Source: Amphiscolops sp. MND2022 (Eukaryota). From it: a stretch of DNA of 64,000 nt. The stretch is taken from NCBI GenBank assembly GCA_964187785.1, contig OZ076409.1:79052001-79116000 (forward strand), given 5' to 3'. Below the pieces are notes generated by a model. That model ran no database searches. It saw nothing but the letters and a program-made list of their open reading frames with translations, and was not told where the DNA came from. A program made the position numbers and the translations under genes. This document shows, in pieces, positions 17,237-63,852 of the stretch (its first letter is position 1; each line of letters begins with the position of its first letter).

Positions 17237-17480
17237 ACAGGAGAACAAAAATACAGAAGAACTGTACTGGAGAACAAAATACGACAAGAATTGAAACACA
17301 CATGAAACACAGGAGAACTGTACAGGAGGACAAAATACCAAAAGAATGAATCACAGGAGAACTGTACAGGAGAACAAAATACCACAAGAATGAATCACAG
17401 GAGAACTGTACAGGAGAACAAAATACCACAACAATTGAAGCACACATGAAACACAGGAGAACTGTGCAGGAGGACAAATT
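17237..17480. repeat. Minisatellite (ACAGGAGAAC-based), shorter version at ~19180-19270
   Basis: Repeated ACAGGAGAACTGTACAGGAGAACAAAATAC units. Confidence 0.85.
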
Positions 17481-35755: not shown

Positions 35756-36076
35756 TTCCTGGAACCCGCTGTTTCTGGGCCTGTCGAGTGGTCGGAGTGT
35801 GGAGTCGCTGGGCTGTCTGCCGTGCTGTAACGAAGAAGACAGCCCCGTTCGAGGGGTCGTGAGTAAAACACTTGACAAAAAAAACTAAACTGAAAAAAAA
35901 TTATATAATGTTTTTCTTGAATCTCTGAGGCATCAGCGCCTTCCATTCCTTTTGTTTACTTTTCTCTGACACTTGCGTCAGATCCTTGAGCACTTTTGAT
36001 CTTTTCGAAGCATAGTCACAATACCAGACGCAAAAGTGTAACCAGAACTTGATTTGATACTGATTTTGATTAGTCG

Positions 36077-36658: not shown

Positions 36659-36950
36659 AAACCAACTCACCTTTTGATAAGAGCGAATTATAGATCCAGC
36701 CCGTTTTTTTTGTTTTTTAGCGCCTTTCTATCTCTTGGTTGATTTTTGCCCCAACTCATTGGACACTAGACCGCCTAAGACGGTCGTGGCCTACCGAGTT
36801 GGGACTTGAGAATCATTACCTCCGCCCCGCGCAGTTTCGTTTTGGCTAGGTTCTCTCTTCTCAACGGACAAAAGACCGCTTAAGACGGTCGTTGCCTACT
36901 GAGTTGAGAGTCCTCGTTTTTCTTTTTTTCGACTTTTCTTTGAAGCAAAA

Positions 36951-39900: not shown

Positions 39901-42900
39901 ACTTTAGAAGACCTCTCATTGGCGGAACAGGTGAAAGCGTGGTATGACCTGGAATCTTACGGTTGCTGCGTTCAAGCCGATCCTTGCTCTGCTGCAGACA
40001 AGCGTGCCAACGAAATCCTCGAGACAACTACCGTGCACGATGGAGAGCGATACTCAGTCGGTATGCTGTGGGCGACAGACAACGTAACGCTGCCTAACAA
40101 TTACTACGCTTCACTGGTCCAGCTGAAATCACTTGAACGGAGACTGGAAAAGGACCCAGAACTCAAATCAAATTATATCGAAACTGTCCACGATGATCTT
40201 CAAAAGGGTTATGTGATCCCCATTGGTGAGTTCAACCCCGAATGCCGTTCCTCACGAGATTGGTATTTGCCACATCACCCCGTGGTAAACCCGAACAAGC
40301 CGGAGAAAGTTCGACGGGTACTAAACGGGGCGTCAATGTTTCATGGCAAGTCGCTGAATAGTTGCCTGTTAACAGGCCCTGATCTCTTGCAAGACCTGTT
40401 AAACGTCCTCCTTCGCTTCCGACAGTATCAGTATGCAGTTTCAGCAGATATTGAAGGAATGTCCCTTCAGGTCGGTGTGCCTCCTCCAGATCAAACATGC
40501 TGGCGTTTTTTGTGGCGGGAGGACCCCACACAGAATGTGGAGACACTCCAGTACACGAGACACATTTTTGGAGCGAGAGACTCGCCGACGTGCGCTAACT
40601 TTGCGCTTCAACAAACAGCTAGAGACAATGAAGCCACCTATCCTCTTGCCGCAAAATCCGTCCACCAGAAGTTCTATATGGACGACTACCTCAACTCTGT
40701 TGAGTGTCCTGAAACTGCTTTGAAACTGAGTCAAGAGCTAATTGAAATGCTCAAACTAGGGGACTTCAAGTTAACAAAGTTCATTAGTAACGTAAACGAT
40801 TTATCTGAAACACTTGAACCGTCCGTTCCTGTCCCACAAGTTAAAGAAATAGTCCAACACCCAACGATCTCGTCGCATGTTTTAGGTCTCAAATGGGATC
40901 ACAAAGCTGACACTATGAATGTGAGCCGAGGCGTTAAGTTGGAGGAAAATCGACCCAACACACAACGCACTGTGTTGAGCACGGTCTCTGCCGTTTTCGA
41001 TCCGCTGGGAACTGTCGCACCCTTTCCGTCGTTGCTCGCGTGCTCTTGAAAGATATTTGGAAACTCAAAGGGCAACAGTGGGACAATCCACTGCCCGAAG
41101 ACATCTCTCGCCAATTTGATGATTGGTGTTCCGGACTACCGTTGCTTCAAGACTTAACAATCCCTCGCGCATATTTTTCTTGCCCAGTCGAAGAAATTGA
41201 GCTGCCTATGTTCGGCGACTGCTCCAAGGACATATTCTGCGCTGTAGGCTTCCTTCGAGCTAAGTGTCAAGGTTCAAATATTGCGCATTTGTCATTCGTA
41301 GTAGGCAAAACGTGTTGCGCCTATGAAACCAATAACAATTCCTAAATTCGAGTTGCAAGCTGCGCTCCTCGCTGTACACTTACGTCAGAAAATCCTCGAT
41401 GCATTAACTTTTGATGTGCCACAGTCTTTCATGTGGACTGATAGCAGCACAGTGCTTCAATGGCTTGCTTCGGCAGATAAACAGCCTGTTTTTGTTGCGA
41501 ACCGCGTAGCGGAAATTCTGGAAACCACAACAATCGACCAATGGTTTCACGTTCCTACTGCTAATAACCCTTCAGATGCTGAAACGCGCGAACTCGCTGC
41601 AGCAGATCTTCCCAATTGTTGTTGGGTGAAAGGGCCTAATTTCCTTAGAACATCCGACTGGCAGTTTGAACCGGAATCATCTGCTATTTACAGTATTAAA
41701 CCAACGGAAACGTGTGCAACTGACGAATTACAGTCCAACTCGCTGGCAGCAGCGTCGCCGCCTAACTCCCCCGTCATAGTTTGGAGTAACTATAGTCCTA
41801 TCGCAAGCTAATCCGAATTGTCGCTTACCTTCTTCGGCTTTCGCCTCGTTACCACCATTTTCGTTCCATTAATGGCAAAATTGAGGACCCGAGTGAGTTG
41901 GAGAATGCCGAAAAGGAACCCATTTTACTTGTCGCAAGTAGAGTCTTTTTCTAATTATCTTCTTGCCGCCAAAGGACAAAAGTCCGGCAAACTCGGTCTC
42001 CTATCATAGTCCCCTTTCATTGGGCCTGATATTTTGTTACGCTCACAGAGCCGACTGCGGCGTCTTTCAGACGTTGGGTACGACACCAAACACCCCGTAA
42101 TACTTGATGGCAAACATCTTTTCGTCAAGGTAATGCTGATACATCTGCATCAATTGTACCATCACCTGGGCTTTGACTACGTAAGAGCCCAAGTGGGCCA
42201 TAAGTACATCATTCTGAAGATCCGCTCCATCCTCCGAACCATCCGCTACCAATGTGTTCCTTGTCGAAAACGTGACGCCGTAATCGTAAACCCCATGATG
42301 GCATGCTTACCGGAAGAAAGGCTTGGTTATCTGGAGCCACCCTTCAGTAACTGCGGGGTGGATTACTTTGGCCCTTTCTTTGTTTCTATTCGGCGCAGCT
42401 CGGAGAAAAGATGGGTGTTCCTGTTTACGTGTCTCACCACCCGAGCAATTCACCTGGAAATAGTTACTTCTATGGACACGAGTGCGTGCGTTGCCGGAAT
42501 TGAACGCTTTATAGCTCGGCGAGAAATGCCCAATGTAATATGGTCCGACAATGGAACTAATTTTGTCGGGGCCGAGAAAGAACTCCTCGAGGTCACCCGT
42601 CGCTGGAATGACTACGCGCCAGCGGCACTCGTATGTAAGGGTATTCGGTGGAAGTTCAATCCGCCCGGCGCCCCGCATCATGGTGGGTCCTAGGAAAGAA
42701 TGGTCCGGAGTTGCGAGAGAGTTTTCTACAGTATCCTCGGGAACCGTAGAATGACAGATGAGACTCTGAACACCACCTTCTGCCTCGTTGAACAAGCACT
42801 GAATAATCTCCCGCTGACACCTGTTAGTGACGACCCGAACGAATTGGAAGCGCTAACGCCTAATCACTTTCTTTCAGGCCGATCATTCCAAGCATTACCA

Positions 42901-43293
42901 AGTCTAGTTCCGGGGGATGAACCAGATCTCCGCCGACGGTATACTAAAGCCCAAGCCTATGCCAACGCAATATGGGTTAGGTGGATGAAGGAATACGTAC
43001 CATCGTTGCATAAGCGTGGTAAGTGGAACAAGCTCTCTGATATCAGCCTGAAATCAGGCGACCTCGTGTGGGTTGTCGACAGTGCAAACCCACGAGGCTG
43101 TTATCCACTCGCTCGCATAACATCGTTGCGTTATGGAGCCGATTCCGTGTCCCGCTCCGCCGAGCTGCGAACCTCTACCGGTTCACTTGTTCGTCCGCTG
43201 GTCAAACTTGCTCCTGTCTTCGGGCCAACATCTTCGTTGAGGGCGGAAGATGTTGTTGACAAACAACATAAGCAAGTGACAACTAATGATTGA
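36951..43293 (+). pseudogene. BEL/Pao gag-pol disrupted by stops and frameshifts
   Basis: LSKYDGDPLSW and EKLTYLKTLVTGKA (Gag); three Cys/His knuckles ending HNTLLH; LCDTGS; WYLPHHPV, LLTGPDL, FGARDSP, YMDD; MFGDCS, WTDSS; CGVDYFGP, SDNGTNF, LTPNHFL, LVRPLVKL. Confidence 0.95.
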
Positions 43294-47136: not shown

Positions 47137-49488
47137 GCTTCGAAGTGCTTCCCTTAATGGCTTTAAAATAGCCGACCCTCTGGTGATTGACGCCAAGTAC
47201 GACCCGACTCTGATGGAAAGAAGAGAGAACCAGAGTTTTTCCACGTTTTTACCCTGTGTGTCATTGAAGATTTCAACCCCGGTGGATAAAGGTAAATCTT
47301 GTAAAAAAGCGCTGTATGTTGTGATTTTCATGCTTTTTTAGTAGTTGACAGGTAACGATTGAATTAGTCTACCCTCTTAACGGGTCACTCATAATATTGG
47401 TCTAGCAAGCCGCTGGGAGGCTGCTAGAAGTGTTAACAGGTGTTTTCTAGCCTTTTTCAGCTTTTTATGACCAATGAAGTGAGTGTTGAGAAGAGGATAA
47501 CCCTTACTCAGAGGAATCCTACAATCTGCCGAAACGAGTTATACGACTCACCGATCCCATTTCCCGTACAGGCAACCTAGAGAAATGAAATTTGGTGGAG
47601 ACGTACTACAAATGCTGACGTGTCTAATGGTGCAACCCGCTTGTCTCTGGCTGTTCTGGGTGATGAGCAAAAAGAACGGGAAGACACGACTCGTCAGTCC
47701 GGGTTGTATGATATTTTTGAGTCAGGTTGAAAAATTTTTTTGGGTTGCTCAAAATTTTGTGTACGACCATTTGCCAATGTTTTTACGAGCCTTCTGTAAC
47801 TAAGTGTGTGCTTTTGCACCAGTTTTGTGCGAAAAAAGTGCGTTTCCTCATGTATTTTCGACGAAAAGTGCCAAATTTGGCCATTTTGAGGCAAAACACC
47901 TACATGAGCGCGAGCGCTCTTGGTGCTAGCCACACACCTGCAGAAATTAAATAAAAGTAGCTCAGGACTCTAACGAGTTCGCAAAAAACGCGACGAAATA
48001 CTCAAAGTTGCCCGAAAAGGCACTTAGTATAAGTTTTGTGAGGAAGAAAACCCGTTTTTGAAAGATTGAACATTTTAGCACTTTGGACTTATGGGGGAAC
48101 TTGTGTGAAAGCTTTTAAACATCCCCGCATGGTTGCAATTAGGTTGGGGTACACCTGCCGGTACCCAACAATACTCATTTTGGTAATTATAACCACTACT
48201 TCTTGAAAAAAGTTACGAAAACTGTGATTTTAAGGTTTTTCTATAGTACTCTTAGAAGAAACCCAACTTGACATTTGACGAACACTTCTACACTTAGAAT
48301 AGCCCCCGGGCTATTATTTTCAGTTTATTCAGTAAATTTAACGATCTATAGTGAAAACCGCATGCAAAAATTCCCATTCAGTGCTGAGAAAAGTAAAAAA
48401 ACGCACTGAATTTGATCAATTTTCCACATAACCGGACTGTCTCTGAGCTAGGGTCGGGTCATCGATTCCTGAACCCTAGCCAAAAAGTGGTTGCATTTTC
48501 GTAACCACCACCAAAATTAACGTTAGTGCCGAAAATTTGGTGAACGTAACTTTCACCAAAATCGAGAAAAGTGCTCTAACGTTTCAACTTCAGAGGACTG
48601 TAAAACTACCGAAATAACCCAAAACTGAAGGACTGTCGGTGCCTCGTACTTAACGGGCACATCTATTCGAGGGTTTATTCTAGTATTACGAGTAGTGGGG
48701 CAACACGTAGATCCCATTTTTTCAACCCTACCACTTTTTGAGGTGACCCTCTTAGCCAATTTGTGAAGAAAGTAGCCTAAGATTGTTTTTCTTTATGAGT
48801 GTCGTCCAAGTAAGGTCGAAACCTCAAATAAGCGTCCGCGCTTTCTTTTGATGGTCTCACCGGCACTGTACACACTCATCGGCTGTAACTACAAAGTTTC
48901 GTGTCAATCCAACCGGTACTTGGTGAGAAAATAGAAAAAACGTACCACTCAAAAAGCTGGGCATAGAGGGTGATTTTTCAAATTTTTCCCGAGTGATCCG
49001 AATACCTTAATTGAAAAACGAGGTTGAATTACAGTTCATTTCTACCATTCGTACCAGATATTACGTTGTTTTGCAAATTTTGAGCCCGCCAGCTTTTTTC
49101 AGTAGAGCACAATCTCGAAATAAGCATGAAAATTGATGTATTTTGATGACTGAAGGTACCGAACGTCCGGATCAACCTAAATCTTGAAATAAAAACCCTA
49201 GCTTGGATTTAATTTTGCTATCGTGTAGTACACCTACCACAAGGTCAGGTGGCCAATTTTCAAGTGTTTCCGACGATTAGACGTTGCGTTCGAGGGATCT
49301 TAGTCATTTCCAAAGAAATTTAAAAAACTCAAAAATTGTCTAAAAACCCAATTGTTTGCGAATCAGCTATTCCGTAAGCTCCAAACGCACGGTTTCCGGC
49401 CCCACACCACGGTATCAACACGCTGTGTAAGTTTCACGCCAGTACGACCCCTAGATCGATTTTTGACTTTTTCGAGACGTGCGAAATC

Positions 49489-52400
49489 ATGAAACCCAAC
49501 AGTTTGCGTAACCTTTGGATTTCCATAACGAGAACATTAGGCCGCGCGAACACCCAGCGACGCTCTAATCATTCAAAAGGGGGGAGGAAGGACATCTCGC
49601 GATGCACTGAAACATCAAAGACACCAGATCCAACGGGGTGCGAGACAAACCTCAGTGCAATATCAGACTTGACCTCAGATCCCAAGGAGGAAGATTGGCC
49701 AACTGATGACAGTTTCATTATGGAACCCGATTTTTCAGACCCCATGTCAGACGACGCATCGGAGGAATATCAAGCCAAGCCGGTTGCCAAGACTACCGAT
49801 GATATCGGAGGTTCAGCAGACGAAACAGGAAGTCAGGCGCACACGTCCAAATGGTTACAAGAACTCACCAAAGTAGCCGTCACACCTTTCGGTACTGACG
49901 AAGCAGGAACATGGCCCAACTCCAACAGGACAAACGCTGAGGAAGAAACTGAAATGAGTTGCTTGAATGCCACTGGACAACTCAAAGCTCCCAGCGTGGC
50001 CAGCGAGAGCACTGCGAACACGGCAGAGATATTGCAGCAAATGTCCTATGTCGGGGGTATGAACTATGCCAGGACACGTCTTCAAGAAGCTACAGCCCCC
50101 CGAGCATCTGGGAAGGGTAAGCAAGTACGGCCTCCAGCCTTACTAGCACAGACTGGCACTACAGGACCTCATGGCGACTCGCGCTCATCCTTACCTTCAT
50201 CAAAAGCTGCATCTGCCCGATCTTCAGCATATCGAGCCGTACATGAAGCAGCGAAAGCACGCAAAGCTCTGTTAGATGCCCAGATAGGCGTGAAGCAAGC
50301 TGCTTCACAACTGTCTGAGCGTAAAGCAAGATGCGACAGAGAGCATCAGTCAATAATGGAAGAGATAGAAGCCGTACAAACTGAACTGCGAACTTCGACT
50401 GAGCGACAAGCGCAAGGACATGAAATTCAGGCAGCTCGAATGGATGCCATGGGTTATCGAATGGCCGAAATAAAAGACATGGTGACCGAAAGAGAGGTGC
50501 GCATGGAAGCTCAACTGCAAGAGGTATGTTCACAGATACAAGCAATGGGCACCATGTTGAAAAATATCCAACCTCAACCCGCACCAGTAAGCAACACTAT
50601 CAAAGAATTGCTGCAAGACACTAATATATCACTGCCAAAACCCATGAAAAGCGTCTCCCTCAAACCAAAAGAGAGTGTGACGATTTCGACAAACCCATCT
50701 GGCTCTAAACAACACTTGGCTAGGTACGCGCCCTTGCCACAAACTCTGGTCTCAAATGGAGAAGCTGCGTCAACATCGACGAAATTTATCCCATCTGCGG
50801 TATCAACAAAAAATATTCCACCCACAACCAAAACTCACAAGAAAGAACCAACATGCGAGGTGATAACTATCGACACTTCAAGCATGGGTATTAGCGACCT
50901 GCGAGAGCCCACACGCGCAAACATGCTAACCGAAGTCACTAGCACCTTCCAAACAGCAAATGCAACTTTGGGAGAATCAGCTGTAGAATTCCAAACCGCG
51001 AACGACGAATTACCCTCGGGCAACCCATGCGCTAGCAGTACTCGACGCCGAGAAGTGACTCTCCCCGAGAACACCGATGACTCTGTCAACTCAACGCGAG
51101 GCAGCAGTATCCCGCCACCAGCTATCAGCGAAGAAACGCCTATATCACCGGAGCAACTCAGGTTTACCGAGGCAATATCTAAAGCCATGTCCAAGGAACT
51201 AGCACCGCTGATTGCTAATCGAGACCAAACCAGGGTGCGCCCTACGGTATACAAAGGCACTAAAGATGGTTCTGTCGATGGATGGCTCCCAGTGATGAAG
51301 CGATTTCTAGAAAGGGTGCATGCAAAATCCCCAAAAATCGACAGAGCCTGGGCTATCATCGACCACCTGGAAGGAGAGGCGAGAAATTATATTATCAACA
51401 AATCTGAACCTGAACGAGACGAGCCCGACAAGGTATTCTCTCTCTTGGCCAGCAGATTTGGAACCGGTGGGAATCGCATGCACGTAAGGCAAACCTTCAT
51501 GTCTCGTGTCCAACAGGAAAAAGAAGATTGGATGCAATTCCTGGACGCATTAGAAGGTCTGCGCACCCAAGGTTTCCCAGATGAGCCTATCACTACACGT
51601 CGTTATGAGATCCTGCAACGTTTTATAGATGGTGTCAATGATCCGACGCTGCGACAAGAGTTGGCCGTGGTATACGCTGCAGAGGCATATCTGACCGAAC
51701 CACCAACTGTAGAATCCCTAAGGTTCACCACAAGACAATTGCAACGGCATCGCCCAAACACGTCAAAACCTTACGACCCAAGGTATGCAATGAGATCGAG
51801 GCCTCATCCTTTCGTGCCAGGAAAATTGGTTCATCCAGCACCAGGCCTACCGCAAAACGTACTACCTCCTAACCAAGGACAACGAGAGGCTAAACCCCAA
51901 ATGGCTCCACCAGCCCCTGCATCAGTAAAACAGGCTCCTGCACAACAGCAACCAGCGAGAGTGGTTCCCCAAGGAGCATGCTTCAACTGTGGGCTACCAG
52001 GTCACTTTGCAAGGGAATGCCCAAGTCGAGACCTAGCAAGGAAACCAGCGGCTCGCGCTGCACCTGAAGAGCGAGTAAACTTATGTGAGAATAATGTGGC
52101 CTCTGCATGTTCTGGCCCCGTATTCTGTGTAAATTGTGGCATGACTGAACACTCTGCATCACAATGCCAAAATGTTCCAGTACATGAGGATTTGGCCTAC
52201 AGCCTCTGGGCTGAACAGCCACCTGCTTCTCAAACAATGAGCGACAGTGAAATGGTACTTATGCTTCGTCCTGCTGAAACCGCTCATGTGGCAACGCCCC
52301 TTACCGTCACATGTGGCAAGATTCAAATCCAGACGAACCCGGAGCCAACTACTTTTGATCCCTCGGGACGCACTATCATGTCTGTCCGATTACTATTGGC

Positions 52401-55400
52401 GATTGAGAGGGAAACCCGCCCAGAACTCACCATAGACGCCCTGATAGACGAGATAACCGCAAACGAGAATTGCCGACAATTGACCCTGCCCCAACCGGAA
52501 GAATGGCAGGTAAAAGGTGTCACTTCGACGTATCATGCCTATTCTCCGATTCCAGTCAAAGTTTGCATAGATGGTGTTGACATGCGTTTTGGTGCCACTA
52601 TCATTACTGACGCATTTCCTCCTGGAATCTGCTTGGGACCACAGGAGCTGCGCTGCTATAACATTGATGCTCAAGAACCAACTGGTGAAGCGAGAATCGA
52701 TGAGCGTGCGTCGCTCGTAGTTTCATTCGTGGTTCCCGATGCTGCTCCCGTGCCATTACGTGGTCTGATAGACACTGGATCAGGAGTGTCCATCCTCACC
52801 TTCTCAGCCTACAATCGAGTCGCTGTGCGCACTGGGACACTCTTACGACCTTATGGTATTGACTTGTATGCCGCGAATGGGAAAACGATCAAAACTTTTG
52901 GTCTAGCGGAGAAAGTCAAGTTCCAATTGGGAGGCTACGAACTGGAAACTAACTTCGTGGTAGTTGACGACGCCATGGGAGTGGAAGACTTCCTCCTGGG
53001 CAGAAACTTCCTAAGAGCTTATCAAGTCTTGGTGGATCTAACCGCGATGAAGGTCATTGTCCGAGCTCCGTCTGAACCAGTGTGGTACCATGCCCACACA
53101 CAAGTAAGTAACGAATCACTCAATTCGTCGGTAGCGATTGCACAGGACGTAGTGTTGCAACCTTTTGAACGCGCAATACTACGCGCTAAACTGCTTGTAG
53201 ACAACTTAGAACCTTTCATATTTCGAACCGTGCTAATCAATTTCCAAACACCTAACCGAATGTTAAAAAACGCCATCTTTTTAGAGGACACCGTGGCGAC
53301 CGTGGGGGAGACTGGCTTCCTTTACGTCAGTTTAGGAAATCTTACTAGCAACGTGCAGCGGATTAAAAAGGGCACCCTTTTAGGAACCGCGGTACCCGTA
53401 ACGATGGTTCACAAAGCCATCCCCCAAATTGTCCCCGGACAATCAAGTGAAACTCAGCAGTCAAATGCAAATTATGTTTGTAAAGTTTACGAACAGATGA
53501 ACCTTGACTCCTCTTCTGAATATAGTTCTTCATCTGAATTTGAGTTTTTGTCCTCTACCGAACCGTCAGAACTAGGCTTGTCCGAGCGCGAAGTAAAAAA
53601 ACGAACCGATCCGGCGTTAATGGCTCCGATACCGGGCCCGGAAGCACAACTCGACGAAGTGCGCGGTTTGTGGGGATCGACCGCCAGCGACACGCTTAGT
53701 AAACTTTTGAATGAATTTGATGATTTGTTTATGAAATTCAAAGCCGATATTGGTAAGTGTAAAATCGCCAAGCACCCGGTGGAAGTAGAGCCAGGGGCTG
53801 TACCCCACCGTGAAGGTGCAAGACGAATGTCGCCTGACAAGGCAGAACGTGCAAACCAAGAAGTCCGTGACCTGCTAGCTTTGGGAATGATACAGCCTTC
53901 TCTATCCCCTTGGGCGAGTGGAATCGTCATGGTCAAAAAGAAGAGTGGTGAATTGCGATTCTGTTGTGACTTTCGACCACTTAATGAAGTGACCATCAAA
54001 GACGCTTATCCCTTGCCACGTATCGATGAAAGTCTATCCAGATTGGGCAAAGCCAAAATCTATACTAGTATTGACTTGGCATGGGCATTCTGGCAAATTC
54101 CTGTCCGAAAAGCAGATCGTCAAAAGACTGCCTTCGCTTGTGAACTTGGGTTATTTGAGTGGCGGCGTATGCCTTTTGGTATGTGTAACGCATCAGCAAC
54201 ATTTCAACGGGCAATAGCGCGAGCGCTACAAAGAATAGTGAACCGTGAAGGAAGTATGGTTATGGCCTACATCGATGACATTGTGATTGCTACCGAGACC
54301 ATCGAGGATCACATGGATAGACTACGCGAAGTATTCCAATGCCTGCGTGAGGCCGGGTTCAAAATGAGAGTCTCCAAGTGTGACTTCATGAAATCGGAGA
54401 TCAAATATTTGGGCCGGGTCGTATCCGCAGATGGTATCAAGCCAGATCCAAAAGCTGTCACCAAGCTGAAAGAATGGGATATCCCGCGAACCAAAACTGA
54501 ATTGCAAAGTTTCTTGGGTTTTGCCAACTACTATCGGGATTTTATCCCATGGCATGCAAAACTAGTTGCCCCTTTACACGCGATAACGGGAGGAGCCTCT
54601 TCATTTTTATGGGGGGAGGAGCAGCAGCGAGCCTTCAACAGCATCAAAGTGGCACTAATGGAAGCCACCGCTCTGGCGCAACCTGACACTGAAGGCGAAT
54701 TTGTTCTCGACACGGATGCTAGTGGTGTAGCTATATCGGGTATTCTGCACCAATGGCAAGGACCACCTGAGAGTCGCAAACTGCGACCGATTGTATTCGG
54801 AAGCAAAAAATTAACTGCTACGCAAGCAAAGTATGGAGCCCCAAAATTGGAAATGTATGCTGCATACTATTTCATCTTGAAAAACCACAGTTACCTCTGT
54901 CCACGAAAGTTCACACTGAGGGTAGATAATCAGGCCCTATCCTGGCTAAAAACATATTCGATGGATCAGGCGATTATCGGTCGATGGATTATGGCTCTTG
55001 AAAAATATCACTTCAGCATTGAGCATCGACCCAGAACGCAACATCGAAATGCTGATGGTCTTAGCAAACGAACAAATGATTACAAAAAACACGAAAAGCA
55101 ACTAAAAGGCTTACCCGCAATTGCAGACAAATGGGATTTCCTGTCACAGGAGGAATATAACAAACTCCCGCTAGCCCCATGGTTCGACGTCCACGGACGC
55201 GTGATACCAAATCATCCAGAATTGCCTGCACACTTGCAGAGGTTGGGTAGCCAAAGTTCACCCGAGACCACAGTTGCCGCTCTCTCGCGAAAGAGCGGAG
55301 GAAGCAAACGAAATGCAACCATACGCGAGGAAGCCATGAGAGCGCCTCTACCTACATTGCCAAAACCAGAATTGACACTGCCCGCCGAACTTTATCCAGA

Positions 55401-58400
55401 ATATCCTGAGGATTGGTTAGAACTGACCGAGGAATATCAACGAGACTATCTACTCCCCACGCATGCTGCTAACGTACCATCAAGAACCACTTACCCACTA
55501 ATGGAAAAGCAAGCAACTAGCACTGCACCAGAGCACGTAAAACAAGCCGCGTTTGTGGTAAACAGCACATCAATGGAACTGCATGAACATGCTAACACAG
55601 TCCATGGATTGAAGGATCTACTACTAGCACAAAACCGTGACGTCCATATATTGGCCATCAAGAAATTGGTAATGCAAGAATCAATAGATAATGACGTCTT
55701 TCCGGAAAATGTGCGCACCTTTGCCAAAAACTACCACAAACAGAAGAAGAACCTCCTACTGATAAACGCCAACGGGATTTTGTGTGTAAAATACTCCAAA
55801 ACTCAAAGAGCTTTGCATGAACGCCCCTGTATGATAGTGATGCCACAATTGTATCAGCATGAGATACTATTCAAGGCCCACGACGCGATGGGACATCAGG
55901 GCATCGCGAAAGTCTTGGCCAGAATTCAAGAGCGCCACACTTGGCCAGGCATCCGCCGCACCATTGGACAATACGTCAGTCAATGTATCACTTGTCAACA
56001 AGTACGCGACAAGCCTGGTGATGTACGCTTTCACTTGAAAAATATCCAAAGCGGTTATTTCAACGAGCTAGTCCAATATGACCACATGAAAATTTGTCCC
56101 TCTGATGATGGTAACACAGGGATATTGGTTATTATCGATCATTTCTCTAAGCTCGCAGAAGCTGTGCCATGTAACCACGATGAGTACGATGCAGCGACCA
56201 CTTCAAAGTTGTTGTTGCAGAAGTGGTTTGCCCGCCATGGAACGCCAACGAGGATGCAGTCAGACAATGCTCCCAATTTCACCGCGGCAGTATCTGCTGA
56301 GTTTATGAAAGCAGCCCAAGTGACCAAAGTAACCTCAACTGCTGGCCACCCCAGGACTCAAGGGTTGGTAGAACGACAAAACCGAACGCTACTCACCCTA
56401 CTGCGTGTATTCTGCTCTAGACGAATGCGTGACTGGGATCAGTACCTAGATGAAGTTATGGGTGCATACAACTCCACACGTCATGCCACTACTGGATTTT
56501 CCCCGTATATGCTGACCAGAGGCATGGAAAAAGCTATACCCCTGACTTTTTTGTATCCGGAATTTGCAACTCAGTCATTCGAATCACACGAAGCCTATGT
56601 GGAACATGTGCTGGCTCGACAACAAGAGATTCATGACTTAGTCCGTCGCAACACGCATCAAGCCCAACAACGACAAAAATTGAAGTACGACAGAGCAATT
56701 CGTGCTAAGGCCTACGAAGTGGGCGAACCTGTTTGGGTATTCTGCCGATACATTCCTCAAAAGGGATCTCCCAAATTGATGAGAGCGTGGCGTGGTCCTC
56801 ACAAGGTAGCACGAGTGCTACAAGAGGGACGTGTTTACATACTTGACACTGGGCAGAAAGTGCATTTCGAACGATTGAAACCGCATCATGGTGGTCCAAC
56901 AGAATGGGCAGCTGTTCCTGCGCATAACGGCGAGGTTGCTATTATCATGGACCCTGATCCAGAACAATCCCATGAGGAGGTGAGAGACGATGCTTCACAA
57001 CCTTCTTACCGTGCAGAGGAACCAATTTCGGAAGCCAGTGATGCCTCTTTGCCTTCTCGACAAAGACATTGGATGGACACACGGTTACGCACACACATGC
57101 GCGCAGGTGGCAGCCGCCTACATTATCAACAATTTGGCTACTCTTCGACTGAGTCTGACGATGAACGTTCTGATGTACTCCTATCGAGTGCTCAAACAAA
57201 TCCTGACGAAAGTGTCATCTTGCCATCACAAGCAGACGAGCCTGCGCCTATTCCCGAAATGCCAATATCACCACTACCTGCTATGGAGGCTCTATTTTCA
57301 GAGAATGAAGCAGTACCAGACGCATTAGATGTCGCCCCGAATCCTAATATCCACGTACCCACCGAAAGTGCCGCCACTTCTTTGACCGGTACATCCGCCC
57401 CATTATTGACAAATCCATCTCTTACGGATATGTTGAGTAACTTTCCCATTTGGCCCCTAATCGATGACAATGACCTCAACCCAACCCTGGACGACGACGG
57501 TGCCGACACACCAACGACCAATAACGAAAAGGGATCAATTCCCCCTGTAACAAATCCCATCAACAATGATGCAGCTACTACCACGAAACTCCCCAATGCT
57601 CCTAGAGGGCGTGGACCCCGGGGACGTCCGCCAGGCAGAGCAAGGCCGCGAGCCTCGCTACCACGTGGTCACCAACGGAGAGGTGCTATTAGAGGCACTC
57701 GCAAAAGAGGCCGTCCCAGAGGTAGACCTCCTCGTACAACGCACGCCAGACCTAACACTCCTACCCATATTCGTAACACTCCATCAATGGACACTGACTC
57801 TTCTGCCCCTAGCGCGGCGGTTACCTCAGATCAGGCAGCACCACCAGAATCGACCAACGCTCATTATGGACTGCGACGCAATCGTATTCCCAGATATCGT
57901 TGCGGAACATGTGGCCTACGAAACTGCGAATGTAACTACATGGTCCACGCGGGCTTCCCAATCGAATCCCAGGGAGTCCTACTAGCACGTGAACAGGAGA
58001 AACCACTTCCGAGCGGAATGGTTGACCGTTTGATTATTCGAGCCGAGAAAACCTACACTGGGCTACAACGCAGTGACACTCCATATCCCGTGGACTATAT
58101 CCTATCCAAAATGAAGGATTCTACGATAGCAAGGGCTCCGTGCCCAAGGTTCAAGGAGTGGACCTATGATCTTGTTGGTTTGGAGTTCACCTTACCCATC
58201 ACTGTTCCCCCTTTGCCTACAAATATTGCTTTTGGTCCTTTCAACTATGAGCGAGAGCCTATCCAAATGATACGCTGTATTCCTGCTGACCTCTTGTACG
58301 ACAAATACAAGGTCACAGCAAAACCAGGAGACGTTTATCAGCCTACAAGCAACTGGTGGCTACTAGTTACGGCCAAACAAGCATCCGACTTGGTTCATCC

Positions 58401-59256
58401 CACTAACTTGAACACCTGTCTGGAGAGTTTGCGGACGATGGCCTCTCCTGATAAAATCACTTGTTTCCACACGATAGACCTATATCGTGGTAAAATTAAG
58501 TTTGAATGGTGGCTGGAACTTATTATAGCAGTTTTATCAAATTTCTCACGAATCAGATTCCTGGACGAATGGACACACTCATTTCCTAGTCCTGTATCCC
58601 TCCAATCGGCCCTGCACGCACTGGATACATGGTCCAGGGCTAACATTGATAATCAATCATTGCCGCGATCTGTATGGCAAGATTTGGGCGCAATCAAGGG
58701 CCTCCTCCCGAATGCATGTGACGATGCTCTTTCCAAGGACCCCGGACGAGAGTTAGTGTACCATGGAGCCGCGAGACCTCAATTGGTTGACTATGTGCAG
58801 TATGCCAATACGGACTTCCTGCAGACTCCCCATCATATCGTTTTATGTTGTCCTGCAAATCTGGAAACTAGTTCTGCCGCTCTTCGTTACGTCATTCGTG
58901 AGCATGGTGCAGATGCAATCTTTCAACTTCGACCGGAGGTTGGCAATATTGTAACGCTACCCACGTCTTTGATAGACGGCCATCCTCAGACTATCCACCT
59001 TTTAATCACACGAGCTACACCTCGCTGCCCTATGCTCGCTGATATTCTTTTTGGATGTCTTGATCATTTGAAAACGTTACTCGAGCGCTTGGAGGCGATA
59101 GAAGTACACTTTGCCATCGTTGATCCTGAACGCCCAATACGTAATCTTTTTGATTTTTATGCCTGTTTGATGGACGTATTCGCCGACACCCCCCTGACCG
59201 TCGTTCTTCACGATCGCGTTTACGTATCTATTGCAAGCGTCGCTAGCTTTCCGTAA
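49489..59256 (+). CDS. Gag-Pol polyprotein (3255 aa): coiled coil, capsid-like Gag, 2 CCHC knuckles, pseudo-protease + aspartic protease, dUTPase-like insert, RT, RNase H, integrase, AT-hooks, tandem macrodomain-like C-terminus
   Basis: CFNCGLPGHFAREC (51979) and CVNCGMTEHSASQC (52126); LIDTGS (Asp at 52771); SPWASGIV, DFRPLN, MPFG and YIDD (54268); DTDAS and DNQAL; H-x4-H...CITC, SDNAPNF, GLVERQN, WRGPHKV; RGRP motifs. No stop codon in 9.8 kb. Confidence 0.95.
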   Translation: MKPNSLRNLWISITRTLGRANTQRRSNHSKGGRKDISRCTETSKTPDPTGCETNLSAISDLTSDPKEEDWPTDDSFIMEPDFSDPMSDDASEEYQAKPVAKTTDDIGGSADETGSQAHTSKWLQELTKVAVTPFGTDEAGTWPNSNRTNAEEETEMSCLNATGQLKAPSVASESTANTAEILQQMSYVGGMNYARTRLQEATAPRASGKGKQVRPPALLAQTGTTGPHGDSRSSLPSSKAASARSSAYRAVHEAAKARKALLDAQIGVKQAASQLSERKARCDREHQSIMEEIEAVQTELRTSTERQAQGHEIQAARMDAMGYRMAEIKDMVTEREVRMEAQLQEVCSQIQAMGTMLKNIQPQPAPVSNTIKELLQDTNISLPKPMKSVSLKPKESVTISTNPSGSKQHLARYAPLPQTLVSNGEAASTSTKFIPSAVSTKNIPPTTKTHKKEPTCEVITIDTSSMGISDLREPTRANMLTEVTSTFQTANATLGESAVEFQTANDELPSGNPCASSTRRREVTLPENTDDSVNSTRGSSIPPPAISEETPISPEQLRFTEAISKAMSKELAPLIANRDQTRVRPTVYKGTKDGSVDGWLPVMKRFLERVHAKSPKIDRAWAIIDHLEGEARNYIINKSEPERDEPDKVFSLLASRFGTGGNRMHVRQTFMSRVQQEKEDWMQFLDALEGLRTQGFPDEPITTRRYEILQRFIDGVNDPTLRQELAVVYAAEAYLTEPPTVESLRFTTRQLQRHRPNTSKPYDPRYAMRSRPHPFVPGKLVHPAPGLPQNVLPPNQGQREAKPQMAPPAPASVKQAPAQQQPARVVPQGACFNCGLPGHFARECPSRDLARKPAARAAPEERVNLCENNVASACSGPVFCVNCGMTEHSASQCQNVPVHEDLAYSLWAEQPPASQTMSDSEMVLMLRPAETAHVATPLTVTCGKIQIQTNPEPTTFDPSGRTIMSVRLLLAIERETRPELTIDALIDEITANENCRQLTLPQPEEWQVKGVTSTYHAYSPIPVKVCIDGVDMRFGATIITDAFPPGICLGPQELRCYNIDAQEPTGEARIDERASLVVSFVVPDAAPVPLRGLIDTGSGVSILTFSAYNRVAVRTGTLLRPYGIDLYAANGKTIKTFGLAEKVKFQLGGYELETNFVVVDDAMGVEDFLLGRNFLRAYQVLVDLTAMKVIVRAPSEPVWYHAHTQVSNESLNSSVAIAQDVVLQPFERAILRAKLLVDNLEPFIFRTVLINFQTPNRMLKNAIFLEDTVATVGETGFLYVSLGNLTSNVQRIKKGTLLGTAVPVTMVHKAIPQIVPGQSSETQQSNANYVCKVYEQMNLDSSSEYSSSSEFEFLSSTEPSELGLSEREVKKRTDPALMAPIPGPEAQLDEVRGLWGSTASDTLSKLLNEFDDLFMKFKADIGKCKIAKHPVEVEPGAVPHREGARRMSPDKAERANQEVRDLLALGMIQPSLSPWASGIVMVKKKSGELRFCCDFRPLNEVTIKDAYPLPRIDESLSRLGKAKIYTSIDLAWAFWQIPVRKADRQKTAFACELGLFEWRRMPFGMCNASATFQRAIARALQRIVNREGSMVMAYIDDIVIATETIEDHMDRLREVFQCLREAGFKMRVSKCDFMKSEIKYLGRVVSADGIKPDPKAVTKLKEWDIPRTKTELQSFLGFANYYRDFIPWHAKLVAPLHAITGGASSFLWGEEQQRAFNSIKVALMEATALAQPDTEGEFVLDTDASGVAISGILHQWQGPPESRKLRPIVFGSKKLTATQAKYGAPKLEMYAAYYFILKNHSYLCPRKFTLRVDNQALSWLKTYSMDQAIIGRWIMALEKYHFSIEHRPRTQHRNADGLSKRTNDYKKHEKQLKGLPAIADKWDFLSQEEYNKLPLAPWFDVHGRVIPNHPELPAHLQRLGSQSSPETTVAALSRKSGGSKRNATIREEAMRAPLPTLPKPELTLPAELYPEYPEDWLELTEEYQRDYLLPTHAANVPSRTTYPLMEKQATSTAPEHVKQAAFVVNSTSMELHEHANTVHGLKDLLLAQNRDVHILAIKKLVMQESIDNDVFPENVRTFAKNYHKQKKNLLLINANGILCVKYSKTQRALHERPCMIVMPQLYQHEILFKAHDAMGHQGIAKVLARIQERHTWPGIRRTIGQYVSQCITCQQVRDKPGDVRFHLKNIQSGYFNELVQYDHMKICPSDDGNTGILVIIDHFSKLAEAVPCNHDEYDAATTSKLLLQKWFARHGTPTRMQSDNAPNFTAAVSAEFMKAAQVTKVTSTAGHPRTQGLVERQNRTLLTLLRVFCSRRMRDWDQYLDEVMGAYNSTRHATTGFSPYMLTRGMEKAIPLTFLYPEFATQSFESHEAYVEHVLARQQEIHDLVRRNTHQAQQRQKLKYDRAIRAKAYEVGEPVWVFCRYIPQKGSPKLMRAWRGPHKVARVLQEGRVYILDTGQKVHFERLKPHHGGPTEWAAVPAHNGEVAIIMDPDPEQSHEEVRDDASQPSYRAEEPISEASDASLPSRQRHWMDTRLRTHMRAGGSRLHYQQFGYSSTESDDERSDVLLSSAQTNPDESVILPSQADEPAPIPEMPISPLPAMEALFSENEAVPDALDVAPNPNIHVPTESAATSLTGTSAPLLTNPSLTDMLSNFPIWPLIDDNDLNPTLDDDGADTPTTNNEKGSIPPVTNPINNDAATTTKLPNAPRGRGPRGRPPGRARPRASLPRGHQRRGAIRGTRKRGRPRGRPPRTTHARPNTPTHIRNTPSMDTDSSAPSAAVTSDQAAPPESTNAHYGLRRNRIPRYRCGTCGLRNCECNYMVHAGFPIESQGVLLAREQEKPLPSGMVDRLIIRAEKTYTGLQRSDTPYPVDYILSKMKDSTIARAPCPRFKEWTYDLVGLEFTLPITVPPLPTNIAFGPFNYEREPIQMIRCIPADLLYDKYKVTAKPGDVYQPTSNWWLLVTAKQASDLVHPTNLNTCLESLRTMASPDKITCFHTIDLYRGKIKFEWWLELIIAVLSNFSRIRFLDEWTHSFPSPVSLQSALHALDTWSRANIDNQSLPRSVWQDLGAIKGLLPNACDDALSKDPGRELVYHGAARPQLVDYVQYANTDFLQTPHHIVLCCPANLETSSAALRYVIREHGADAIFQLRPEVGNIVTLPTSLIDGHPQTIHLLITRATPRCPMLADILFGCLDHLKTLLERLEAIEVHFAIVDPERPIRNLFDFYACLMDVFADTPLTVVLHDRVYVSIASVASFP

Positions 59257-59484: not shown

Positions 59485-62400
59485 ATGAACCAAGATAATG
59501 ATAGAAGCAACAACGTCCCGCCGAGGTCTACAGACAACTCTCCTGCCTTGGGGCAACGCGTCTATGACACTGCGCGTGTCCAACGCACCCCACAAATTGC
59601 CTTTATTCGAGACAGACTCGACCAAGGTCTGTCGCCAGCTGCAGTGGCCGGGGTAGCAGCAATAATTGCCCAGATGGAATCACAATTGCAAGCCCCAATG
59701 CTAACGATATCAATTACCTCAGGGTTTCCTGGATTTCAACGATCCATGACGTACCAAGATGGAGTGTGGCACGGCCATGATCTTACGCATCACTTCACAG
59801 ATGATCGTGCGGCGATCTCGTATAGTCTTGCGAATGGCGGAGTCCACCAGACTAGACCTTTACAGATCCCTTCTTGCCCGCCTCCACCTCCACCGCCACC
59901 TCCTGTACCAACACCACAAGCAGTAGTGCGCGCGCGCACTCCTGCTCCTATGGTGCCTAGCCTGCCCAATCAATCTATGGCGGAGCAAGCAGTCATTTCA
60001 GCGCTACAAGCAGTGGCTGCCAATCCCAATTACGATGACTTCATGCGATCCATGGAGCAGTGTTGGCCAGAGCTACGTCGAATTGCTCTGCCCACTGTCA
60101 CTATTCGTAACGACAATGCGACTTCAACTGAAACACGTCAAGGTGTCATCACTATTCCCCACATCAATCCTCAGTCTGAACAGCCAGGACACTCTCGCAC
60201 CGTGACTGTGGAACGCAGTCGTTCGCCTTCCCGCTCTTCTCAAAAGGGGGGAGGAGAGAGCCGCCCTGCCTCCAGAAAGCGCAACGACCCCTCCCCAACA
60301 AAGAAGACTCAACAACCATTGACTGCCCGTGACAGCCCCTCGAGCAAGCCACCACCCGACAAAAAGATTTCCAACGAGAAGGCCACAACCTCCAAAGCGC
60401 CAGACCAAACGAAGTCAAAAGTGTCGGAAGCATGCGTGCTTCCCTCACCCCAATCACAACCGGACGTGACAGGCGAGCAACAAAGACTGCCGCAACCACC
60501 ATCCACGCAGTCTACAACACGCGAGTCGCTGGCTCAACGAGCGACTCCTAAGCCCTCCACGTCAGGACAGCCACAATCGGAGCAAACTGTGGGTTATCAA
60601 GGCACCCCTGTATCCCAGCGAACTGTCAAGGACATAATGGGTGATTACCCAGGGTTGAAAGTGACCAACAGTGGTCCAACTGGAACCCCACTCCGGAAAC
60701 AGGCGATTCAACATCCAACTAAGAGGACCTTTACGAAACAGCCGACGTACCTGAGCCCCATGCAGAACACAAAGGGCACATTGGTCACCAAGGATTCCCG
60801 ACGTATCTGGGAATCGGCAGTTATAGTATCGCCCGAATGGCTATTTGAGAAAAACATGTGTCCTCCAAGTGACGAAGAGCACGCGAAACTGAAGAAGGCA
60901 AATGTACCCGTATTCATGAATCGTCCAATCCGCCCAGACCACACTCCTACCAATGAGCCGCCATGGCTAGGGAAGGCAATGAATATGCTGCCAAACGTGG
61001 ATGACAATTACCTAGATGCCCTCAACGTTGACCTTCGTGGGCAATTCGCCGATCGATATTTTCTCAACGCTGGAGAGACCTTTGAGATCAACCCACGGTA
61101 CGCCCGTGATCTCGAAGCCCAGCTACCAATGCCAAAAGAAAGGTTGCAGCGTGCGCGCTTCGCCTTACTTATTGACTCAACATTCCTCAAGAATGTCCCC
61201 ATCGACAACGTGTTGTCAGACGTGATGGTTTTTACTCTACCGCTGTCACGTATTCCCGAGATGGCCGAAGTGTTGGTCACCATGTTTGACCCTGAGATGA
61301 CAGGAACCTTCAAAGAGCCACCTCCACGTAGAGTGATCATCAGCAACGTTTTCGATCACATGGCCTGTGAAGGACTAATGGCCCAGATCGCGAACGTTGA
61401 GATTATGAATCCAAGTCCGGCTCAGCGAACAACGGTACGCAATGCAGCATTGAACATGGCCCGAGCCATGGAGAAAGCCCAAAACATCTTGAAAGACAAA
61501 CTCAAGGTGCCAGCCCTGTTCGTGACACCCCCAGGTTTTTGCCAATGGCCCCCCGCCTTGCAGAGATTCATATACATGGTGACAGAAGTTTGCAAGTGCA
61601 GAGAAATAGACTTTGCGATCTGCGCGCCCAATATGCGGATTAGCTCCAATGACTTTCGCCCCTCCTGGCTGTCCTACATGGGGTACATTGCCTCAGTGTC
61701 TAAAGTGCTACAGTCAGTAGAGAAAACAGGGAACGCGCAGCTGACAATCGACGATGCCATTTACTTTGATCACGGCACTCGCATGGGCTTGTTGGTGTTC
61801 AACAAGGACGGAGAAAGGCGAGTCCCAGAGCCCAGTACGGCCGAATGCGAGGCAATCCGCCTGAATAACTGGATAGAGCGCGCGCGCTCATCCGGTGGAA
61901 AGATTTGTATCAAAACCGATCTTGCAGAAGTCACTGCCACAATGAGCAAAGTCCCCAGCGACCGAGAAGTAGAACGAGCCATCCCGCGAGTTCAATTTGC
62001 CAAGGACCTCACAATCGATCAATTATCAGTGGGAATGAAGTACATTGCTGCTAAATTGACGAGCGAAACTCAGGCTGAAATCCAAGCCTTCAGCAGCACC
62101 TACGACGCCTGGTACCAGCGGCTACAAACTACCACCGTAGCAGACATTGCAAAAGAGCTTGGGATGTCAACCGACCAGTTTGCCATCTGTTTGGGATTGG
62201 GTTGGAGTCCCGATGTTATTCGAGTCGAGTTCGATTTAGAGGAGAGTTGGTTGATCGAAATCAGCGAGATTATCGGTACCGTGCAGGTGAACGAACTCTT
62301 TGCACTGATGCTCACTTTCGGGCAGAAACGCTTTGTAGCTGGCCCAATGATGATATTGACTGACCTGGTTACCGAGTGTAATCTGGAATGGCTATTTTCA

Positions 62401-63852
62401 TATCTGGTGATTGCACGAGGGAATATCTCATGTCTAACCGCCCTAGCCAAGCTGTTGCAACGGAAAGACGCTCAGGATTATCCCGCTCACCTGGAGCGTA
62501 TGACAACTTCATTGTATCACTGGATGTATTGCAGTCTGGTCTTTGCCTCGGGACTCTTCGTGGGGGTGGATAAGCACCAACCGTTATATGATGGACGTCA
62601 GCTAGTGACCGAGGTAGCTGGATTTTTGACACCCAACCAGCTGGCAGATTTCACTTTGGCTGAAGTCGAAGATCTTATACCGGTGTTAGCACCCGTGCTA
62701 ACTCCGATATTTGGCCCAACCGGGATACTCCGATACCCCACCAAGCCTCTGAGACTGGCCTCGGAGACGTTAACGGTATCCATCCTAACTTATCTGAAGA
62801 ACGTAAAACCACACAACTATCAACAGATGCTTGAACGTGGGCTGTTTCTGCTAGTACCACGTATGTATACCACAATAAAGAATGAGACACAGCAAGACGA
62901 AAACCTGGCCGGTATTCTCAAAGCCCGAACAAAGAAGGCGTGCCCTTTACCTCGCGAATACGGCCCGGTGAATTGGTATAATTCTCCCCTAGACCACCTC
63001 GGAATCCCACAGCGATTCAATTGGAGTTTCGCACACCTCAGGAAGTACGTGACCGAGTGTGTGCAAACCATGGGCGGTCACACGAATCAGGAGTACAATT
63101 TCCAAATGATTAAGCTTCCAGCCAGGTACTGGCGAGGACCCATCGGTTATATCCGGGCCAAGCCAATCAGTATGGTCGAGAAGGGCTTTGATGAGCAGTA
63201 TGCCTATCGCGACCACTACAAACTTGGCGTGTGGATGTCAAGAACCCTGGAGGAGCGCCAAGGACGCCTAAGAGGTTTAATCATCCCCCCACTGACAATG
63301 CCTGTTTGGAATCCAGAGGCGAGGGTTACTATGGGAAGCGACATGCCAGCGGAGACTTGCTACCACGTCATGGAATTGCTAAGTGATCCCCTCGGACCCG
63401 AATGGGAAGCCTCTAGGCAAATCATAGAGCATGCGAATAGGGACAACTGGTCCAGAGCCTGCGGGCTCTGGGGCCGACCTGATCTACGCCCGAAACTCAG
63501 TGCGAAACAGAAACGACCCATTGCCACCCGCAATAGACCGCTGGATCTACCGCACTTGTTTAATGCTAGTAGACTGGATGTACAGATCCCAATCTCCACA
63601 TCAACCACAAGTTCTGCCAATGTTAGCGGCTCAGCCAATGCAGCGCAAGAACATTCGCCAGAAGCATCAACTCCGGTAGCCGCAGAAAATGGCCCTGGTG
63701 GCTCAAACACGACTCCTAGGACCCATGAAACTGCCAGCGCAGAACCAAAGCCAGTCCTGCGAGGAGGAAATACGCGAAGAGGATCTCTGTCTGAACTGCA
63801 ACCAAAGGCAGACGTTTCCCCCAGAGCGCGTCACTCCTCTGCCACCCAGTAA
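59485..63852 (+). CDS. ORF2, ~1455 aa from first strong ATG (open from 59266): Pro/Ser-rich disordered N-terminus, SGNH-hydrolase-like domain (~61156-61713), unknown helical C-terminal part
   Basis: Uninterrupted 4.4-4.6 kb ORF right after pol. Motifs FALLIDS, RRVIISNVFDH, ALFVTPPG and NDFRPSWLSYMGYIASVSKVL occur in SGNH block order. A pyrimidine-rich CAG lies just before the ATG. Confidence 0.85.
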   Translation: MNQDNDRSNNVPPRSTDNSPALGQRVYDTARVQRTPQIAFIRDRLDQGLSPAAVAGVAAIIAQMESQLQAPMLTISITSGFPGFQRSMTYQDGVWHGHDLTHHFTDDRAAISYSLANGGVHQTRPLQIPSCPPPPPPPPPVPTPQAVVRARTPAPMVPSLPNQSMAEQAVISALQAVAANPNYDDFMRSMEQCWPELRRIALPTVTIRNDNATSTETRQGVITIPHINPQSEQPGHSRTVTVERSRSPSRSSQKGGGESRPASRKRNDPSPTKKTQQPLTARDSPSSKPPPDKKISNEKATTSKAPDQTKSKVSEACVLPSPQSQPDVTGEQQRLPQPPSTQSTTRESLAQRATPKPSTSGQPQSEQTVGYQGTPVSQRTVKDIMGDYPGLKVTNSGPTGTPLRKQAIQHPTKRTFTKQPTYLSPMQNTKGTLVTKDSRRIWESAVIVSPEWLFEKNMCPPSDEEHAKLKKANVPVFMNRPIRPDHTPTNEPPWLGKAMNMLPNVDDNYLDALNVDLRGQFADRYFLNAGETFEINPRYARDLEAQLPMPKERLQRARFALLIDSTFLKNVPIDNVLSDVMVFTLPLSRIPEMAEVLVTMFDPEMTGTFKEPPPRRVIISNVFDHMACEGLMAQIANVEIMNPSPAQRTTVRNAALNMARAMEKAQNILKDKLKVPALFVTPPGFCQWPPALQRFIYMVTEVCKCREIDFAICAPNMRISSNDFRPSWLSYMGYIASVSKVLQSVEKTGNAQLTIDDAIYFDHGTRMGLLVFNKDGERRVPEPSTAECEAIRLNNWIERARSSGGKICIKTDLAEVTATMSKVPSDREVERAIPRVQFAKDLTIDQLSVGMKYIAAKLTSETQAEIQAFSSTYDAWYQRLQTTTVADIAKELGMSTDQFAICLGLGWSPDVIRVEFDLEESWLIEISEIIGTVQVNELFALMLTFGQKRFVAGPMMILTDLVTECNLEWLFSYLVIARGNISCLTALAKLLQRKDAQDYPAHLERMTTSLYHWMYCSLVFASGLFVGVDKHQPLYDGRQLVTEVAGFLTPNQLADFTLAEVEDLIPVLAPVLTPIFGPTGILRYPTKPLRLASETLTVSILTYLKNVKPHNYQQMLERGLFLLVPRMYTTIKNETQQDENLAGILKARTKKACPLPREYGPVNWYNSPLDHLGIPQRFNWSFAHLRKYVTECVQTMGGHTNQEYNFQMIKLPARYWRGPIGYIRAKPISMVEKGFDEQYAYRDHYKLGVWMSRTLEERQGRLRGLIIPPLTMPVWNPEARVTMGSDMPAETCYHVMELLSDPLGPEWEASRQIIEHANRDNWSRACGLWGRPDLRPKLSAKQKRPIATRNRPLDLPHLFNASRLDVQIPISTSTTSSANVSGSANAAQEHSPEASTPVAAENGPGGSNTTPRTHETASAEPKPVLRGGNTRRGSLSELQPKADVSPRARHSSATQ

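Follow-up and report, generated by a model that had tools for sequence, protein, structure and literature searches.

A predicted pair of macro-like repeats with replaced pocket residues at the C terminus of a Ty3/gypsy Gag-Pol protein

The window analysed here, a stretch of 64,000 nucleotides from Amphiscolops sp. MND2022, holds a long retroelement frame whose protein runs on well past its integrase, and the question raised by this locus is what the folded end of that protein is and what it could do for the element. An earlier note on this DNA had proposed a tandem of TARG1/Poa1p-type macrodomain-like folds in the place where chromoviruses have a chromodomain, serving as pseudo-macrodomains that read ADP-ribose or chromatin and possibly guide integration or counter host ADP-ribosylation. 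Little is understood, to our knowledge, of how animal gypsy elements that lack a chromodomain select their targets and withstand control by the host.

By its domain order and catalytic motifs, the element is classed as a Ty3/gypsy LTR retrotransposon (Metaviridae). Pfam matches in the Gag-Pol frame (Table 1) follow the gypsy order zf-CCHC, gag-asp_proteas, RVT_1, RT_RNaseH, Integrase_H2C2 and rve, and the catalytic motifs of protease, reverse transcriptase (RT), RNase H and integrase are all present in this frame. The protein comprises a capsid-like domain, with a weak Pfam match to the PNMA capsid in the Gag part, a zinc knuckle, protease, RT, RNase H, integrase and a long tail. Gag and Pol lie in one frame, without a frameshift. 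Pfam finds no domain in Gag-Pol past residue 2368, and the C-terminal motif of the integrase at 56788 (ORF residue 2471) is one that we take to be GPY/F-like. No LTR pair was found between the 3' end and the upstream DNA of the window, which stops 148 bases past ORF2.

Several stretches of Gag-Pol outside the named domains were also noted. About 560 residues upstream of the capsid-like domain (49489-51177, forward strand) are poorly conserved, with 21-34% identity to relatives. The segment before the protease (52300-52707, forward strand) is conserved and its second half resembles the second half of the protease; a degenerate second protease repeat there was not established by hhalign (probability 2.8%, E 0.016). 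A beta-rich segment lies between protease and RT (53080-53412, forward strand), which is where a dUTPase sits in some LTR elements (PMC5408684). Pfam gives no match to this segment at E up to 2, so a dUTPase there would be degenerate at most.

Table 1. Features located in the window; positions count from its first nucleotide.
Feature	Position	Strand	Basis or description
194-codon frame	36074-36658	+	alternating strand-helix look; no Pfam match above cut-off; no ORF2 match
Broken BEL/Pao retrotransposon	36903-43293	+	several frames: DUF1759, RT, Peptidase_A17, rve, DUF5641
Near-identical tandem blocks	8400-13900, 16300-19500, 29650-31900		periods of about 1,833, 1,945 and 1,143 bases
Gag-Pol ORF	49378..59256	+	one open frame, 3,292 codons stop to stop (ORF list)
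Integrase: HHCC zinc domain, DDE core, C-terminal motif	55825..56817	+	Pfam, motif positions
Linker, 336 residues, low complexity	56845..57852	+	composition, 45% P/S/T/D/E
Y-x-L-R (57865), then C-x2-C-x4-C-x-C (57901)	57853..57942	+	conserved; candidate nucleosome anchor and zinc site
Beta-rich extension before repeat 1	58021..58209	+	strands 3-12, 44-47, 53-62; pLDDT 60-90; conserved columns
Repeat 1, more eroded, macro-like	58210..58590	+	model residues 64-190
Inter-repeat segment	58591..58779	+	conserved helix 194-206 and motif, then loop with pLDDT <50 at 208-251
Repeat 2, predicted TARG1/DarG/Poa1p-type macro fold, remodelled pocket	58780..59220	+	Foldseek, VIA, HMM
ORF2	59485..63852	+	1,455 aa from first ATG (ORF list)

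Downstream of Gag-Pol lies ORF2, with an N-terminal part of low complexity and a conserved C-terminal part; it has 21 homologues at 39-95% identity, in clusters of up to 657 members. Searches of Pfam, PHROG and PDB returned no match to ORF2, and its sequence holds no strong hydrophobic or membrane segment (best 19-residue mean 1.74). An SGNH-like domain had been guessed for ORF2 and found no support in the domain and PDB comparisons. The remaining DNA of the window is repeat-rich, with 33-41% GC. It includes a broken BEL/Pao element, BEL/Pao being an animal group, which makes an animal host probable, as well as three regions of tandem blocks and a dispersed short repeat in both orientations.

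The C-terminal module was modelled with AlphaFold2 over 58021-59253 on 78 aligned sequences (mean pLDDT 75.6, pTM 0.70), and model residues are numbered from 58021; a model from the single sequence had a pLDDT of 36 and was discarded. The model contains two alpha/beta domains with a low-confidence loop between them. The second domain, repeat 2, is predicted with pLDDT block means of mostly 78-94 over residues 261-400. Foldseek, one of the checks that had been suggested, places TARG1 first (4j5r, E 1.6e-8, TM 0.82 by target), and VIA-align superposes residues 257-399 on TARG1 with a Z of 17.6 and an rmsd of 2.1 over 137 residues. TARG1 is also the best match of the model in a wide structure search. 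The other fold neighbours include DarG (Z 15.5), 2AFC (Z 13.9), ALC1 (Z 13.0) and Poa1p (Z 12.6-13.0), the reader macrodomains of PARP9/14 appear alongside that of ALC1, and the named viral matches include several macro-domain proteins, with the coronavirus entries at Z 7-9.5.

Sequence profiles lead to the same family independently of the AlphaFold2 model. A profile of 78 homologues searched against 177,635 PDB sequences returned TARG1/C6orf130 in 5/5 rows to E 10, at E 0.04-0.06, and the profile of a second alignment matched TARG1 at E 7.7e-4, with the match falling on repeat 2 and not on repeat 1. TARG1 also filled the top 5 of 8 rows in a further PDB profile search. No macro match to either repeat or to their relatives was found in Pfam, NCBIfam or PHROGs, and when the protein by itself was searched against PDB with phmmer, nothing beyond a chance match came up. 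In the ESM Atlas, repeat 2 matches unnamed clusters of 150-190 aa at 0.90-0.91 and one cluster at 0.89 in which 14% of members carry PF01661 Macro, the latter serving as a lead only. Model and profiles together give strong support to a predicted TARG1-type macro fold for repeat 2, as had been proposed.

The fold of repeat 1 was approached through its likeness to repeat 2. Fold searches of the joint model were filled by repeat 2 and barely probed the other parts, and the ESM Atlas gave no usable match to repeat 1. When a profile of repeat 1 (93 rows) was aligned by hhalign with one of repeat 2 (82 rows), 105 columns were matched with a probability of 80.9%, an E of 1.3e-5 and a score of 36.5. 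The reversed profile scored 14.5 and the highest of 40 block shuffles 25.9, so that the real score stands above 40/40 shuffles. Repeat 1 is predicted with pLDDT block means of mostly 84-96 and has the same order of strands and helices as repeat 2; macro domains 1+2 of PARP14 align over both repeats, with 249-250 residues at an rmsd of 16. On the profile comparison there is moderate support for repeat 1 as a diverged copy of repeat 2, and a macro fold for repeat 1 is very probable when sequence and model are taken together. The proposal of a TARG1/Poa1p-type fold is thus carried at moderate strength for this repeat, by way of its alignment to repeat 2.

The tandem arrangement at the Pol C terminus is borne out by this homology and by both repeats lying in the Gag-Pol frame. 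The peptides by which the earlier note had recognised them are in this frame (MIRCIP at 58267, YANTDF at 58801); the start it gave, 58250, is one base off the frame (58249/58252), and reading from there gives stops. Its outline of repeat 1 needs to be widened, as the repeat reaches upstream to about 58210 and is preceded by a folded extension from 58021. In the segment between the repeats, residues W204, R216, W219 and D221 are conserved. The comparison with the position of a chromodomain holds insofar as the module follows the integrase and ends Pol; it departs from that position in that repeat 1 starts at ORF residue 2945, about 470 residues past the integrase C-terminal motif and beyond the 336-residue linker. 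Pfam matched no Chromo domain in the window protein (E limit 1) or in P0002/P0003 (E limit 2), and no PHD in the element proteins. Since Chromo is unmatched and the terminal folds look macro-like, the element lacks the chromodomain at the integrase C terminus by which chromoviruses are recognised.

The module is not confined to this copy of the element. The last 393-411 residues of the protein are conserved in 52 long Pol proteins at 42-98% identity, which a cut at 85% divides into three families, and the same C-terminal tail is found in 128 shorter proteins (42-99% identity for the best 120 of 128). Both repeats are present in 52/52 long matches, a count made on proteins that were found with that region as query and so no proof for all relatives. 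A profile search of 1.84 billion representatives gave 396 matches at E up to 0.001, and the best 150 of these are taken, by score and coverage, to be pieces of the three families. Counting fragments, 1,094 sequences belong to the 90% cluster of the closest relative. Across the families the reading frame of the module stays open and shows hardly any gaps at 42-64% identity, as expected of a folded domain that is under selection. Identity to three relatives is 42-64% in the repeats, 82-92% in RT, 69-89% in integrase and 42-51% over aligned columns in the linker; few folded parts of the protein are less conserved than the repeats, which come near the level of the linker.

Searches further afield gave little. 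A set of 61 RT loci from remoter gypsy elements (identity 28-59%), most of them too short to include the integrase tail, gave no match to the repeat profiles (best independent E 0.28). The macro region had no DNA relatives in metagenome contigs and the integrase no loci in viral contigs, and tblastn against phages gave one match at E 2 in one search and none in the other.

If the fold is that of TARG1, the residues of its pocket can be compared. K84 and D125 are the catalytic residues of TARG1, and in repeat 2 the positions of K84, G121, G123 and D125 would be occupied by R331, D368, E370 and P372. These equivalences are read from a sequence alignment that is weak (E 0.04 to 8e-4) but free of gaps: the HMM alignment of repeat 2 to TARG1 runs ungapped from the K84 strand through the last strand, and repeat 1 is placed through the hhalign register. 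Among relatives thinned to 80% identity, repeat 2 retains the TARG1 residue at K84 in 1/46, at G121 in 0/37, at G123 in 1/35 and at D125 in 0/36; the corresponding counts for repeat 1 are 0/42, 1/44, 1/43 and 0/43. Glycine occurs in 1/44 and 0/44 at two positions counted in loop 1 of repeat 2, for which we assume the register to TARG1 G43.

The residues that stand in the pocket of repeat 2 instead are themselves conserved: D265 in 85%, S285 in 93%, A286 in 95%, R331 in 91%, D368 in 95%, R371 in 89% and the Glu at the G123-equivalent, E370, in 80% of 35 relatives. D265 may be the adenine-binding acid of the macro fold, if our register is right. In repeat 1, D153 (86%) and R156 (81%) are conserved, and loop 1 is apparently shortened, by about 9 columns at low alignment confidence. 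Both repeats have an Asp at the G121 position and an Arg three residues on. The claim that the glycine loops are missing is correct for the motifs, which are absent in both repeats, and too strong for the loops of repeat 2, which are still present in the model and carry conserved substitutes.

As far as the aligned residues tell, neither repeat appears to have the catalytic Lys and Asp that mark a TARG1-type hydrolase, nor the glycine-rich diphosphate loops (G43; G121 and G123) that mark an ADP-ribose binder, and the pair is likely a pseudo-enzyme. The catalytic lysine is common to TARG1 and DarG (PMC8883491), and the G123E variant of TARG1 is reported to fold but to gain no stability from ADP-ribose and to lack catalytic activity (PMC5928194). 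Since replacements at the pocket positions, among them the Glu at G123, run through the whole family, erasing or reading of ADP-ribose by the pair is unlikely. This agrees with the pseudo-macrodomain state put forward in the earlier note and speaks against both uses that it had attached to it, ADP-ribose reading and the countering of host ADP-ribosylation. The Asp at the G121 position and the Arg three residues on, being shared by both repeats, suggest that remodelling of the pocket preceded the duplication. The conserved substitutes fit a remodelled ligand site as well as they fit a pocket that has been stapled shut.

The region between integrase and module contains short motifs of a different kind. 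AT-hook-like RGRP motifs lie in the linker at 57619, 57706 and 57718, and RGRP was found in 8/8 long proteins examined; the Pfam AT_hook match is weak, with E 1.2 for P0002 and E 0.2 for a single member of alignment A1. The Y-x-L-R and the Cys4 motif that follow are each present in 45/50 distinct homologous 29-mers, which come from 121 of 392 proteins and were chosen by the neighbouring C-G-x-C-G core. The chance expectation of YxLR in the Gag-Pol ORF is 0.48, so only its conservation counts. Its spacing equals that of Y537, L539 and R540 in the Gag of prototype foamy virus (PFV), through which PFV Gag anchors on the nucleosome acidic patch (PMC9040877, PMC6042332). YxLR-Cys4 is short but conserved, and its plausible analogue in foamy virus makes it a candidate anchor. 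The AT-hook-like and YxLR-Cys4 motifs, which lie at 57619-57942 and outside the interval 58250..59256 considered at first, are better candidates for a chromatin tether than the macro-like pair.

With an open frame, a conserved module, a fold match and replaced pocket residues, docking is the role that we favour for the pair: on sequence and model, the chances are about even that it acts at the integrase tail as a module for docking proteins, with no catalytic part. In the course of events that we infer, an ancestor of the element would have captured one TARG1-like domain, whose pocket would have been remodelled and which would then have duplicated. The resulting pair would stay attached to the integrase and dock a protein partner from the host or the element, and the AT-hook-like and YxLR-Cys4 motifs would tether the integration complex to chromatin. 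Non-catalytic tandem macrodomains in coronaviruses (Mac2/Mac3) and macroPARPs are a precedent for a docking pair (PMC10221186), and the solved complex of SARS-CoV macrodomain II with Paip1 (6yxj), which is among the fold matches, was counted for docking. It is doubtful, by comparison, that a captured TARG1-type enzyme became a duplicated reader of chromatin or nucleotide marks which, with AT-hooks and nucleosome anchor, would form a multivalent, chromodomain-independent targeting tail. Likewise unlikely is a reading in which repeat 2 binds an adenine nucleotide mark, such as ADP-ribose or PAR, through its remodelled pocket and steers the integration complex to marked chromatin or damage sites. 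The main point in its favour would be D265, the possible adenine-site acid in our assumed register; the pocket rim also remains polar and conserved (D265, S285, R331, D368, E370, R371), both loops of repeat 2 are in the model, and readers such as ALC1 and PARP9/14 are fold neighbours. Against it stand the absence of glycine from the loops, the apparent shortening of loop 1 in repeat 1 and the loss of binding in TARG1 when Glu takes the place of G123 (PMC5928194).

TARG1 binds RNA independently of its pocket, and its variants G123E and G43E retain this binding (PMC5928194). The pair could accordingly bind RNA or DNA on its surface as TARG1 does, in packaging, as a chaperone of reverse transcription or on target DNA, and the conserved Arg in both repeats would suit this. 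However, RNA binding by TARG1 uses basic patches (PMC5928194), while the net charge of repeat 2 is acidic (10 K+R, 18 D+E) and that of repeat 1 neutral (13, 13); nucleic-acid binding is not favoured for this reason, and we hold it to be improbable. Similarly improbable is a product that is released on its own or has a structural use only, in particle assembly, stability or as a scaffold for the ORF2 protein, with no part in target choice. A long linker of low complexity does set the pair well apart from the integrase core, it diverges like the capsid and spacer regions, and the family also keeps a large ORF2; yet with Gag and Pol in one frame the tail would be produced in the same amount as Gag, no matter what it does. 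Very improbable is an active ADP-ribose eraser directed, as viral macrodomains are, against a PARP-based host defence: the best fold matches are active enzymes (TARG1, DarG and Poa1p) and macro genes occur in fish retroviruses (PMC4977317), but hardly any relative keeps the Lys and Asp of TARG1 or the glycines of the loops.

The pair deserves attention in two respects. The family is intact and abundant and its tail module invisible to Pfam, so its function could be addressed with small purified domains. The module would also be a natural TARG1-type fold that carries the substitution used in the laboratory to kill ADP-ribose binding, which points to functions of the fold that do not depend on the pocket. 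If the pair only scaffolds, it would be of modest interest, as a further example of a dead domain that a large retrotransposon has captured.

Some animal gypsy polyproteins carry automatic annotations of a Poa1p-like macro domain, and databases may for this reason already list single macro domains in gypsy Pol. Fish retroviruses with macro genes (PMC4977317) and viruses with dead macrodomains in tandem (PMC10221186) have been described. A gypsy element with the present layout was not among the full-text matches listed, a body of text that covers subscription papers and Repbase Reports thinly. The available text of a survey of fusions to transposable elements (bioRxiv 10.1101/2021.11.30.470311) mentions no macro fusion, and the word 'macro' is absent from the available text of PMC6431247, PMC5408684 and PMC9289625, which deal with extra domains in LTR elements.

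Among retroelements, the nearest likeness is to the fish epsilon-like endogenous retroviruses (ERVs), for which a review citing Basta et al. 2009 describes ORFs with a macro domain (PMC4977317). Both are cases of a macro domain in an animal LTR retroelement; in the fish ERVs it forms an additional ORF of a retrovirus, whereas here it is an in-frame tandem at the C terminus of a gypsy Pol. Chromoviruses and PHD-fused retrotransposons, whose chromo and PHD fusions have been surveyed (bioRxiv 10.1101/2021.11.30.470311), share with this element an extra domain after the integrase, C-terminal in a gypsy Pol. The present domains differ in matching neither Chromo nor PHD and in lying some 470 residues past the integrase motif. 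The chromatin-binding site of PFV Gag (PDB 5MLU) has the same Y-x-L-R spacing with an anchor Arg, beside Gly/Arg-rich sequence; here, by contrast, the motif is in the integrase tail and is followed by Cys4, and the match consists of four residues and marks a candidate only.

Among macro proteins, TARG1/C6orf130/OARD1 (4J5R, 2L8R), DarG (5M3I, 5M31), 2AFC/2FG1 from B. thetaiotaomicron and Poa1p (6LFQ) have the same compact macro fold over all of repeat 2, and TARG1 is the sole PDB family matched by the sequence profile of repeat 2 (to E 10). The module differs from this group in an identity of 12-15%, in the replacement of K84, G121, G123 and D125, in its two copies and in its fusion to a retroelement Pol. 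Coronavirus nsp3 (Mac2/Mac3) and PARP9/14/15 also have tandem macro folds without catalytic residues, in nsp3 within a large polyprotein (PMC10221186). These coronavirus and PARP arrays keep an active first domain and belong to another macro subtype, whereas in the present element both repeats look dead and come closest to TARG1.
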